The translations under genes and the position numbers were made by a program. From contig CAZWEM010000002.1 in the NCBI GenBank assembly GCA_964632315.1, positions 1 through 64,000 on the forward strand: a DNA stretch of 64,000 bases, in the 5' to 3' direction. Below the pieces are notes generated by a model that was given only the letters and a program-made list of their open reading frames with translations, made no database searches and was not told the DNA's origin. Origin of the DNA: an uncultured archaeon (GTDB lineage: Archaea; Asgardarchaeota; Lokiarchaeia; Sigyniarchaeales; SOKP01). Positions 22,219 through 25,097 of this stretch are shown here, one piece after another (the stretch's first letter is position 1; the number at the start of each line of letters is the position of its first letter).

Positions 22219-22848
22219 TTGGTTATTTCATTGATCAATTTCATAATTTTAATAATTTCTTTTGTTATTATGGGCTATACCTATATAATAAGCATTCAAC
22301 CAATGAAAAGAACAGAAAAGAAAGGAGAAAGAGCTTGGAAAGAATGTAAGACATATCGTTCGATAGGAGGGGTTTTTGAATTCGTATCCGTAATTAACAT
22401 GATTATATGGATTTGGTATCCTCTCCCCATTGTTGGTGAGTGGAAGATTAATGAAGATATTTGGGTTGGGATTATTATTGGACTCGCTATATTGATACCT
22501 GGACTATTTCTTGTTATTAAAGGAGTAATGGATGCAGGATCCGAAACACTTTCTCCATCTAAAGATACTAAAATGTATGGAGGAATATATAAGTATATTA
22601 GACATCCTCAAACACTGGGTGAGTTTCCGATGTTTGTTGCTATTAGCTTCATGCTTAATTCATGGTTCTTAGTTGTTCTTTCTGCTGTTTATATCATAGT
22701 GTATATCCCAATCATGATGTATTTTGAGGAGAAAGATCTCACGCGACGTTTTGGGGATAAATATCTTGAATATAAAAAACAGACAGGAGCCCTCTTTCCA
22801 AAAATATCAAATAGTAAACAAAGTAAAATGAGAGATGAGGGAGTTTGA
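22219..22848 (+). CDS. ICMT/PEMT-like membrane methyltransferase
   Basis: GIYKYIRHPQ, EEKDL..RFGDKY.EYKKQT. Confidence 0.85.
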   Translation: MVISLINFIILIISFVIMGYTYIISIQPMKRTEKKGERAWKECKTYRSIGGVFEFVSVINMIIWIWYPLPIVGEWKINEDIWVGIIIGLAILIPGLFLVIKGVMDAGSETLSPSKDTKMYGGIYKYIRHPQTLGEFPMFVAISFMLNSWFLVVLSAVYIIVYIPIMMYFEEKDLTRRFGDKYLEYKKQTGALFPKISNSKQSKMRDEGV

Positions 22849-23273
22849 CTGGCATTAGAAAGAACAAATGGTTATATATCGGTGCAATTTCTTTAATGAT
22901 ATATGCTATAATTGAAATAATTGATTGTATTACTTTCTTTTTAATAATTTTAAGCGTTGTTCCAAATTTTTCAGTGGATTTGTATCTTGCTTTTCCTGAA
23001 ATAAAACAATTATTCGTGTCTCAACCGATCTATTTAATGCCCATGGTTTTAAGTTTTACTTCAATGAGAGCTGTTGCCACGGTTGGACTCTTTAAGAACC
23101 GATTGTGGGGTTTTTGGGTTGGAATTTTAAGTTTAACCATGACCATGATCTGGGATATTATAATCATTCCGATTGGTTTCTTTGAACTCCTTGGTTGTGT
23201 CTTTATTTCAATAGTCCTTTTAATTGGCTATTTTGGAGATAAACTAATAATTAACGATTTAGAGATGAAATAA
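22845..23273 (+). CDS. Hypothetical membrane protein
   Basis: Four TMs; coupled to both neighbours. Confidence 0.7.
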   Translation: MTGIRKNKWLYIGAISLMIYAIIEIIDCITFFLIILSVVPNFSVDLYLAFPEIKQLFVSQPIYLMPMVLSFTSMRAVATVGLFKNRLWGFWVGILSLTMTMIWDIIIIPIGFFELLGCVFISIVLLIGYFGDKLIINDLEMK

Positions 23274-23806
23274 TGAAGAAAAAGGGGAAAATTACTACAC
23301 CTCAATTTGAATATGTTGAAAATGAAGTTAGAAAAGAGATCTTTGGTATTCTGAGTACCATAGACCAAGATGGAAAATCGCATTCTACTGGTATTATTTA
23401 TGCCATTTCTCCTCCAAGATCTAATTTCTCACTTTATATATTAACCGATAGAACGTATAAGAAGGTTAGAAATATACAGCATAATTCTTCCGTGTCGTTT
23501 GTCATTCCTTTTCCCCATTATTTACTTAGGTTCATTCCTTCCTCATGCGTTCAGTTCCAAGGTACCGCCAAAATACTCCCTTTTGAAGATTCAGAAGCAC
23601 AGCTGTCGTTTAAAATGGGAAAAAAAATGCTCAAAATGAATATAGAACAAGCAATTAAGGATAATCAAAACGGTGAAAATATTGTGTTTATCAAAATAAT
23701 CCCCAACCCGAAAATTTTTTGCTATGGATTAGGTATAAGCTTGATGCAACTTCGGAAAAATGTCGAAATTGGGAGTTACAGTGTTACAATTCCAAGGGGA
23801 AGATAA
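23273..23806 (+). CDS. Pyridoxamine 5'-phosphate oxidase-like (FMN/F420 split-barrel) protein
   Basis: GILSTIDQDGKSH, KKVRNIQHNSSVS, VQFQGTA. Confidence 0.8.
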   Translation: MKKKGKITTPQFEYVENEVRKEIFGILSTIDQDGKSHSTGIIYAISPPRSNFSLYILTDRTYKKVRNIQHNSSVSFVIPFPHYLLRFIPSSCVQFQGTAKILPFEDSEAQLSFKMGKKMLKMNIEQAIKDNQNGENIVFIKIIPNPKIFCYGLGISLMQLRKNVEIGSYSVTIPRGR

Positions 23807-23922
23807 GAAAAGTAAGTCCCAAATATTTTTTTCATCAATTTTCTTAGCTACATCTTTAATGTTAATTTCAAAAATCACATAGAATTCTCATTTAAGACGA
23901 AAAATTAAAAAGATTAAAAAAT

Positions 23923-24570
23923 CTAAAGTTTAGATTCTTCCTCAACATTAATCGCATCAGCTTTTTGTCCAACTTCAGTGATTGAGTCAAGAATTTTTTT
24001 ATGGAACACGGTTTCGATGTCAACCATGCTTTTTATAACCTTTTGCATTGTTTCCAATTTTTCTTTATTGAATGCTTCTGTTGCCGTCTTTACATCGGCC
24101 TCTTCTTTGTTAGCATTATCTTTAGCTGTTTTTAGCTCCGTTTCAGCATTTTCTATCTCATTTGGTTTAAGCTTTTCTGGTGGTTTGCTCTGAACTTTGC
24201 TCAAATGTTTCTCAGCTTTTTCAAGTTCCTTGGAAGCTTTTTGAGCTTCACTTTGTTCAGTATTGAGTTTTTGTAAGCTAACTATAAGCCCTTGTAAAGG
24301 AGCTATATATTCTTCACGAAGCCGCTTGACTTTTTCTGTGCTTTCTTTTTCAATAATGTCAAAAGTTGATGCTAATGAACTGATAGCTTGCCCTAAGGAT
24401 GGGGTCTCCGATTCTGCATATGTTTCTAATGCACCAATGGTTTTTTTTACCTCTTTTGTGACATTTTCTACTGCATTAATGTATTGATTACTTCCCTTGA
24501 TTAATTCATCAATCTGATTGCTTGTCATTCCTAAAGCATTAGACAAATTATCCATAAATTTTTTAAACAT
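23923..24570 (-). CDS. BAR-domain-like helical protein resembling FAM92/CIBAR
   Basis: YAESETPSL, VKRL..EYIAPL, IENAETEL, IETVFHKKILD resemble recalled FAM92A motifs; AAGGTG RBS. Confidence 0.7.
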   Translation of the reverse strand: MFKKFMDNLSNALGMTSNQIDELIKGSNQYINAVENVTKEVKKTIGALETYAESETPSLGQAISSLASTFDIIEKESTEKVKRLREEYIAPLQGLIVSLQKLNTEQSEAQKASKELEKAEKHLSKVQSKPPEKLKPNEIENAETELKTAKDNANKEEADVKTATEAFNKEKLETMQKVIKSMVDIETVFHKKILDSITEVGQKADAINVEEESKL

Positions 24571-24779
24571 TTTATTACACCTTTTTTAAATTTCTAGATT
24601 AATATTACTGAGGAGTTTAAATTCTTGATCTTTATAGAAATTTAACAAAATAACATGTAATAATTTTTTCAAACAATCAGAAGCGAATATATATCTATTA
24701 AATAAAAAAAAATTAGAATAGTTTGCTAAAAAGTCAGTATAATTTTGTGGTTTTATGAATATTCTTCGTTATTCTCGTC

Positions 24780-25097
24780 CTAAGATGATGAACCTGATGA
24801 ACCTGAAGACATCAAATTTACTAAGGATTCAGAGGTTATTACGGAATCGCATTTTGAACATGAGTGCAACACTACGGGCAATGCTCCAATTTTGTCTAAA
24901 TAGCGATCTACAAACTTTAAGGTATATTTCGCAATTCTTTTTATCATTTTTCCCCCAATTGGGACAACTTCTGCTTGAATATCTATGAAATTCTCATAAG
25001 TTTTCATGATGTCATCCTTAAACTTATCATCAATGGGAGTTGGGCTAATTTCAAGCCTTAATTCTAACTCTTCTTTACAATACGGACATTTCGGCAT
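24780..25097 (-). CDS. Split zinc-ribbon protein
   Basis: MPKCPYC ... CSKC with a long helical insert; Ser/Gly tail. Confidence 0.7.
   Translation of the reverse strand: MPKCPYCKEELELRLEISPTPIDDKFKDDIMKTYENFIDIQAEVVPIGGKMIKRIAKYTLKFVDRYLDKIGALPVVLHSCSKCDSVITSESLVNLMSSGSSGSSS

Follow-up and report, generated by a model that had tools for sequence, protein, structure and literature searches.

A 215-residue protein encoded in a 64-kb stretch of archaeal DNA (contig CAZWEM010000002.1, positions 1 to 64,000; hereafter the window, meaning the whole stretch that was analysed) is supported as a stand-alone BAR-domain protein with family-level kinship to the eukaryotic FAM92/CIBAR family. The protein, termed P0001, very probably has a true BAR fold that is homologous to that of CIBAR, and its similarity to CIBAR1 is far beyond what chance or a generic coiled coil would provide. 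Eukaryotes rely on BAR domains as core tools for remodelling membranes, and their CIBAR1/FAM92A bends ciliary and mitochondrial membranes; the prokaryotic roots of BAR domains bear on membrane shaping by the Asgard host of eukaryogenesis. P0001 provides a compact, single-copy example of the one archaeal BAR family with sequence-level kinship to one specific eukaryotic family.

BAR-domain proteins are not new to the Lokiarchaeia. A putative BAR-domain protein of Lokiarchaeum was reported in 2015 with the first Loki genome, as cited in PMC4917890, and homologues of P0001 are already named 'BAR domain-containing protein' by NCBI and UniRef, with precomputed Pfam labels that include PF06730. The novelty of the protein was thus overstated in the preliminary description, which was drawn from the sequence alone. 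None of the open papers searched states a CIBAR/FAM92-specific kinship of the Asgard BAR proteins. P0001 is well supported as an ordinary, well-conserved member of a known, uncharacterised Asgard BAR family; since Asgard BAR proteins are already known, the value added here is one of precision, not discovery.

Sequence kinship to CIBAR/FAM92

P0001 matches the Pfam FAM92 family (PF06730) with 38.2 bits (gathering cut-off 23.6), the match spanning positions 20-221 of the 225-position model, and the locus also exceeds the PF06730 cut-off in a six-frame search of the genome. BAR_3 is matched slightly below its cut-off (28.9 bits), and Vps5 (PF09325) is not matched at E values up to 10. Against the sequences of the PDB, phmmer retrieves CIBAR1/FAM92A (9uhd_A, E 8.3e-12; 8ceg_A, E 5.4e-10) in a single stretch of alignment spanning approximately residues 12-211. 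The four blocks of human FAM92A that the preliminary description had named are all present in the solved CIBAR1 (YAATETPHL, VERLEAKVVEPL, ISQAETELQRA and FERQKM...IEMLFHGKALE) and align colinearly to the blocks of P0001 with which they had been paired.

Profile comparisons point to the same family. A profile of 24 close homologues (mean column identity 85%) matches CIBAR1 as the sole BAR protein of the PDB, and a profile of 51 diverse archaeal members reaches CIBAR1 with an E value of 1e-21 (80 bits), the next BAR families scoring no more than 27 bits (amphiphysin with 26.7 bits and E 2.6e-5, then IRSp53, SNX5 and arfaptin). In the reverse direction, the next-best PDB family for a profile of 24 eukaryotic FAM92 BAR domains is Vps5 (34 bits). 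Alignment of the archaeal to the eukaryotic FAM92 alignment by hhalign yields a probability of 99.4% (E 1.1e-21, 202 columns). By profile scores, the archaeal family and eukaryotic FAM92 are each other's closest relative, and the family-level match that had been proposed at the outset stands. The possibility raised with it, that only generic coiled-coil families would be retrieved, did not materialise; the matches are specific to BAR proteins.

A hidden Markov model (HMM) search of 1.84 billion representative sequences with the close-family profile returned 106 matches, none of which belongs to another named BAR family. Approximately 70 are archaeal-type and approximately 30 are eukaryotic FAM92A/CIBAR1 proteins (from molluscs, an annelid, a bat and a rhizarian transcriptome), while two giant repeat proteins (5,692 and 1,903 residues, with 17-18 short matched stretches each) are taken for coiled-coil noise.

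The Y-A-E-S-E-T-P signature is invariant in the close family, and its Y, A and E are conserved in the archaeal and eukaryotic sets (the eukaryotic form being YAxxETP). Pro91 is likewise invariant in the close family, and proline occupies this column in 43 of the 53 archaeal rows and in 20 of the 26 eukaryotic ones; the corresponding kink proline is conserved in FAM92A (human P98, mouse P167; PMC12269497).

On the eukaryotic side, divergent FAM92-type proteins are noted in a transcriptome of the rhizarian Mataza sp. D1 (P0222; MMETSP/EukProt) and in Logan (P0240), and both lie on long branches at the base of the eukaryotic clade. The rhizarian source of P0222 hints that FAM92 is older than Metazoa; contamination of this transcriptome is possible. 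Word-indexed searches with P0222 and with a divergent FAM92-like protein returned only the queries themselves.

Predicted fold and homodimer

The AlphaFold 2 (AF2) model of P0001, built from the family alignment, has a predicted local distance difference test (pLDDT) score of 91.4 and is all-helical (residues 2-53, 57-127 and 138-205), which bears out the earlier description of the open reading frame (ORF) as a 215-residue all-helical protein. The top Foldseek match of the model is the BAR domain of mouse FAM92A (9uhd; template modelling (TM) scores 0.89/0.90, root-mean-square deviation 1.7 A, 21% identity), followed by human FAM92A1 (8ceg) and then by APPL, SNX1, arfaptin-2, endophilin, ACAP1 and other BAR domains. 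Sixty-three PDB matches were obtained at E values of 0.001 or below, and the best 50 of these 63 are all BAR, F-BAR or I-BAR domains.

A six-helix-bundle dimer is typical of BAR domains, and P0001 quite probably dimerises as modelled. The homodimer model scores 0.77, compared to 0.00 for the best of three controls; of proteins solved as same-chain pairs, 20 of 30 reach the mark used for this score, compared to 1 of 23 solved as single chains. Between runs, no fewer than 98% of the contacts agree, and the partner pLDDT is 88 or higher. The predicted interface is symmetric and antiparallel, as had been anticipated for a BAR homodimer, and is formed by residues 15-70 and 165-215; the contact of lowest predicted error, H190-H190, lies on the dyad. 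As solved FAM92A dimers exist, this pass may in part reflect memory of a like complex. The positions concerned are those of the eukaryotic protein: V37, T44, Y51, M182, V183 and H190 of P0001 align to L44, L51, Y58, F187, I188 and H195 of human FAM92A. The equivalent mouse residues L113, L120, Y127, F256, I257 and H264 are those at which mutations disrupt the FAM92A dimer (PMC12269497), and by alignment the predicted interface residues V37, Y51, M182, V183 and H190 coincide with dimer-breaking positions.

Candidate membrane-binding surfaces

FAM92A binds lipids via basic clusters of its concave face (PMC12269497, PMC11266426). In P0001, the most positive window of 25 residues lies at the distal tip (residues 111-136), and this segment carries a net charge of +4 to +7 in all 24 close homologues. 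The tip residues R132, R134 and R136 of FAM92A1, of which R132 and R136 are reported to bind lipid (PMC11266426), align to K125, Q127 and K129, such that two of three basic residues are kept. Among archaeal rows, a basic residue occupies these three positions in 92%, 53% and 79% of cases, respectively; among eukaryotic rows the figures are 96%, 73% and 81%. Given the conserved lysine-rich tip, membrane contact of P0001 through its tips is plausible. Of the helix-2 cluster of FAM92A (K107/K109/R110), one of three basic residues is kept.

A second candidate surface is the N-terminal segment (residues 1-14), which lies outside the predicted dimer interface. It has a hydrophobic moment of 0.57 and a mean hydrophobicity of 0.09; Gly14 is invariant, and the first 10 residues are modelled with a pLDDT of 73. 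FAM92A1, for its part, reportedly has no additional N-terminal helix (PMC11266426). An H0-like role of this segment is only plausible.

Distribution and evolutionary origin

Wide-profile matches were found in 63 of 400 genomes sampled across the phylum, and all clear ones come from the order or class to which the source genome belongs; beyond the Lokiarchaeia, the genomes of other families in this sample gave a single marginal match (E 8.8e-4). Within the genus of the source genome, the gene is present in 11 of 41 genomes and is 70-87% identical where present. It looks accessory yet strongly conserved. In the source genome (4.45 Mb, 119 contigs, 99.5% complete) it is single copy, and searches with PF03114 and PF16746 found no other BAR-type gene.

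The family comprises at least approximately 60 divergent archaeal-type representatives, with identities down to approximately 21%. A phylogeny with eukaryotic BAR domains, as envisaged in the preliminary description, was obtained for FAM92 (26 eukaryotic and 62 archaeal domains; IQ-TREE maximum likelihood, LG+C20, quick search, unrooted). Archaeal and eukaryotic rows are split by a single branch of approximately 1.5 substitutions per site, with a Shimodaira-Hasegawa-like approximate likelihood ratio test (SH-aLRT) support of 100 and no nesting. On these sequences, the archaeal family is placed as sister to the eukaryotic FAM92 clade, not as a member of it, and the topology is compatible with an ancient common origin of the archaeal family and eukaryotic CIBAR. 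With no root to the tree, and no member of the archaeal family found in Asgard classes other than Lokiarchaeia, vertical descent into eukaryotes and an ancient transfer in either direction are indistinguishable. The family is restricted to Lokiarchaeia, patchy and free of conserved neighbours; its presence alone is therefore no proof of vertical inheritance by the last eukaryotic common ancestor. It is quite unlikely, on present evidence, that a single Asgard BAR protein, already shaping the necks or bases of actin-filled protrusions via membrane contacts of its tips, was the vertical ancestor of both the Lokiarchaeial family and eukaryotic CIBAR. If it was, the membrane module found at the ciliary base of eukaryotes would trace to Asgard protrusion biology, perhaps along with the BAR superfamily as a whole, and the absence of the family from the other Asgard classes searched would represent loss.

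Other architectures occur among the relatives of P0001. In one genome of a sister order of the same class (G310:C3:39006-41398), three divergent BAR-family matches are adjacent and a fourth lies elsewhere; the triplet represents a local tandem expansion. Sister-family relatives encode tandem double-BAR proteins in a single chain of approximately 450-550 residues, including P0140 of Ca. L. ossiferum and L043 (G315:C1:4484000-4485800), with further examples at G315:C1:2539875-2541236 and in G089, G213, G314 and G285. The AF2 model of P0140 (451 residues; pLDDT 86.6, predicted TM score 0.76) has two units joined by a low-confidence linker of approximately 20 residues; each half resembles the FAM92A BAR domain (TMt 0.92), and the model suggests that the two units pack as an intramolecular pseudo-dimer. 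In the metagenomic archaeal-type protein P0176 (467 residues), HEAT repeats at the N-terminus (HEAT_2, E 1e-39) are fused to a C-terminal BAR domain of the P0001 family (residues 231-452), a combination absent from the other members examined. In another metagenomic protein (P0206, 321 residues), PEGA and PD40-like N-terminal parts precede approximately 86 final residues that match the C-terminal third of the BAR profile; this arrangement could reflect the fusion of a fragment or an error of assembly.

Proposed mechanism and alternative explanations

P0001 is best explained as a cytoplasmic, stand-alone classical BAR protein of a Lokiarchaeia-specific family that is closest in sequence to eukaryotic CIBAR/FAM92. 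Two three-helix chains are predicted to pair in antiparallel orientation via helix 1 together with the first part of helix 2 and the last part of helix 3, such that H190 lies on the dyad. The dimer would bind curved membrane mainly by its two conserved lysine-rich tips (residues 111-136), possibly assisted by the N-terminal amphipathic segment, and would sense or stabilise curvature, for example where protrusions narrow into necks, branch or constrict. The gene would be transcribed alone, without a conserved gene partner, as an accessory function of some members of the genus. As a whole, this explanation of a CIBAR-related BAR dimer with a curvature-sensing role is considered fairly likely; for the functional part, the balance tilts only slightly towards membrane binding or curvature sensing. 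Residues that lend themselves to testing are four lysines of the tip (K125, K129, K133 and K135) and, at the dyad, H190 and V37.

Several observations weigh against this explanation. P0001 is acidic (net charge -7, pI 5.19), and the central helix-1 cluster of FAM92A (R39, K40, R43, R45 and K47) is replaced by N32, A33, N36, T38 and E40, with none of the five basic residues kept. The columns of this cluster are seldom basic in the archaeal family, so a fully basic concave face is unsupported; of the basic concave face anticipated in the preliminary description, it is the tip cluster that is conserved. The N-BAR-like H0 proposed there fares similarly: residues 1-14 are amphipathic, but internal coiled-coil windows are equally or more so (0.60-0.67), and many homologues carry a 4-residue deletion in this segment. 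Archaeal ether-lipid membranes are unlike the phosphoinositide/cardiolipin membranes preferred by FAM92A. Taken singly, the 51 wider-family members match BAR_3 (21), FAM92 (20) and BAR (13) about equally often; it is therefore through profile-level and reciprocal comparisons, rather than through each single sequence, that a kinship specific to FAM92 is supported. Five congeners of 99-100% completeness (G371, G376, G252, G267 and G264) have no homologue by direct search with all candidates scored, and the gene is therefore dispensable. Finally, the papers searched hold no experiment or biochemistry on any archaeal member of the family.

The acidity of P0001 and the loss of the central basic cluster would also suit a protein that keeps the BAR fold and dimer and acts mainly as a protein-protein scaffold (e.g., for the Lokiactin cytoskeleton or small GTPases) instead of a membrane-curvature module. 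The BAR domains of arfaptin and APPL, both among the fold matches of P0001, bind small GTPases. Two proteins labelled BAR-domain were recovered below significance by co-immunoprecipitation with Lokiactin in a 2026 study of L. ossiferum motility (PMC13716822), a result that also fits the main explanation. This scaffold role is judged unlikely, though worth weighing: of all charged features, the lysine-rich tip, counterpart of an experimentally defined lipid site in FAM92A, is the one best conserved between archaea and eukaryotes, and the subfamily has neither a conserved neighbour gene nor a fused partner domain. Scaffold and membrane roles are not mutually exclusive.

The two remaining alternatives concern the origin of the gene and the nature of the similarity, and both were rejected. 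A recent eukaryote-to-archaeon transfer, or contamination of the assembly with eukaryotic sequence, would fit with a family found in only one Asgard class, patchy within genera and with non-archaeal relatives that are all eukaryotic. This is nevertheless very improbable, as the gene lies 2 kb from the archaeal S13-S4-S11 cluster, the same protein is recorded on a 166,733-bp contig, the GC content matches that of the flanks, the archaeal family is large and divergent, and the tree separates the two sides without nesting. That P0001 is a generic three-helix coiled coil, with a BAR likeness that is compositional and no specific relation to FAM92, is hardly credible. Its K/E-rich helical sequence does give weak Pfam matches to many coiled-coil families (E above 0.001), and the wider-family members taken singly show little preference among BAR_3, BAR and FAM92. 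Against this stand the full-length colinear alignment with the YAxxETP turn, kink proline, FH motif and basic tip residues, a lead of more than 50 bits for CIBAR1 over every other PDB chain, and the hhalign and fold results.

Gene organization and flanking genes

The coordinates of the gene, its candidate expression signals and the regions of the protein are collected in Table 1. The plus-strand frame over 23923-24570 contains many stops. The placement of the genome in the Asgard archaea holds, because the S13-S4-S11 archaeal ribosomal protein cluster lies inside the 64-kb window, 2 kb upstream of the gene, and close homologues of P0001 carry the labels Lokiarchaeota or Promethearchaeota. The GC content of the gene (0.34) is like that of its flanks.

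Table 1. Positions in the window of the P0001 gene, its candidate expression signals and the protein regions discussed in the text.
Feature	Position	Strand	Description
Coding sequence of P0001	23923..24570	-	215 aa, ATG to TAG (TAG stop at 23925-23923); from ORF list and translation
N-terminal extension MFKKFMDNLSNALG, residues 1-14	24529..24570	-	Amphipathic, ends at Gly14; candidate H0-like membrane-inserting helix
Helix 1, residues 15-53	24412..24528	-	In central six-helix bundle of predicted dimer; interface residues 15-56
Signature Y-A-E-S-E-T-P, residues 51-57	24400..24420	-	Turn between helix 1 and helix 2; equivalent to YAATETP of CIBAR1
Helix 2, residues 57-127	24190..24402	-	AF2; carries Pro91, equivalent to the kink proline of FAM92A
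Basic distal tip, residues 111-136	24163..24240	-	Eight Lys, net +4, conserved S-K-P-x-E-K-L-K-P loop; candidate main lipid-contact site
Helix 3, residues 138-205	23956..24159	-	AF2; F189-H190 motif at predicted dimer dyad
GGTG, Shine-Dalgarno-like	24578..24581	-	7 nt upstream of ATG, read from sequence; putative function
TATA-like TCTATAAAG	24630..24638	-	Approximately 60 nt upstream of ATG, in 209-nt AT-rich intergenic spacer; weak candidate
T-rich tract	23898..23922	-	Directly after stop codon; candidate archaeal oligo-T terminator

The gene looks monocistronic. The TATA-like match could be due to chance, since the spacer is AT-rich. A promoter and terminator scan with bacterial-type consensus sequences gave counts no higher than those of shuffled sequences, and such a consensus does not apply to archaea. 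None of the six neighbour genes recurs within 1.5 kb of a homologue in 19 other genomes; in five congeners the flanking genes are on different contigs, and at the loci compared the single-domain subfamily has no conserved neighbour gene or fused partner domain.

Immediately upstream, also on the minus strand, is an ORF of 105 residues (24780-25097) with no Pfam match; it carries CPYC and CSKC pairs that resemble a zinc ribbon and ends in an SSGSSGSSS tail. Its DNA is approximately 77% identical in congeners, where it lies on contigs unrelated to their BAR gene. Convergent on the BAR gene are three tightly packed or overlapping plus-strand genes (22219-23806) for a PEMT/ICMT-like membrane methyltransferase, a 142-residue multi-pass membrane protein of no family and a PNPOx-like flavoprotein.

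Comparison with known BAR systems

Homologues termed 'Vps5-BAR' are described in Asgard archaea, with a fusion to Vps28 in Thorarchaeia (Eme et al. 2023; PMC10307638). Like P0001, these proteins are assigned to the BAR superfamily, and 1 of the 51 wider-family members matches Pfam Vps5 (E 9e-8). By contrast, the P0001 family is essentially confined to Lokiarchaeia in the profile search, no Vps28 fusion is seen, and P0001 has no PX domain. A search of 301 Asgard genomes with PF09325 gave sub-threshold matches only, none of them in the source genome.

The N-BAR proteins amphiphysin and endophilin share with P0001 the classical crescent BAR fold (Foldseek TM 0.67-0.77) and a short amphipathic N-terminal segment ahead of helix 1. 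The sequence relation is at the superfamily level only (at most 26.7 bits), the H0 of P0001 is putative, and P0001 has no SH3 or other effector domain.

The Lokiarchaeial 'BAR domain-containing proteins' are of the same family as P0001, several homologues of 70-87% identity being so named by NCBI. UYP47554.1 of Ca. L. ossiferum is recovered by the P0001 family profile (E 1.3e-47); this protein and several relatives are of the tandem double-BAR type (approximately 450-550 residues), whereas P0001 is the single-domain form.

The closest known counterparts are CIBAR1/FAM92A and CIBAR2/FAM92B (PF06730; 8ceg, 9uhd). Archaea are not known to form cilia, and the source organism has no mitochondrion; the CIBAR partner Chibby (PF14645) has no match at E values up to 1 in the source genome. 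P0001 differs from CIBAR in its lack of a C-terminal extension (215 residues, compared to 224-430 in the eukaryotic rows) and in its acidity, without the central concave basic cluster of FAM92A. Like the CIBAR proteins, it has a three-helix BAR monomer of approximately 210 residues, and it shares with them the YAxxETP turn, the kink proline, the FH motif and the basic tip residues. The antiparallel dimer predicted for P0001 uses positions equivalent to those of the experimental FAM92A interface.

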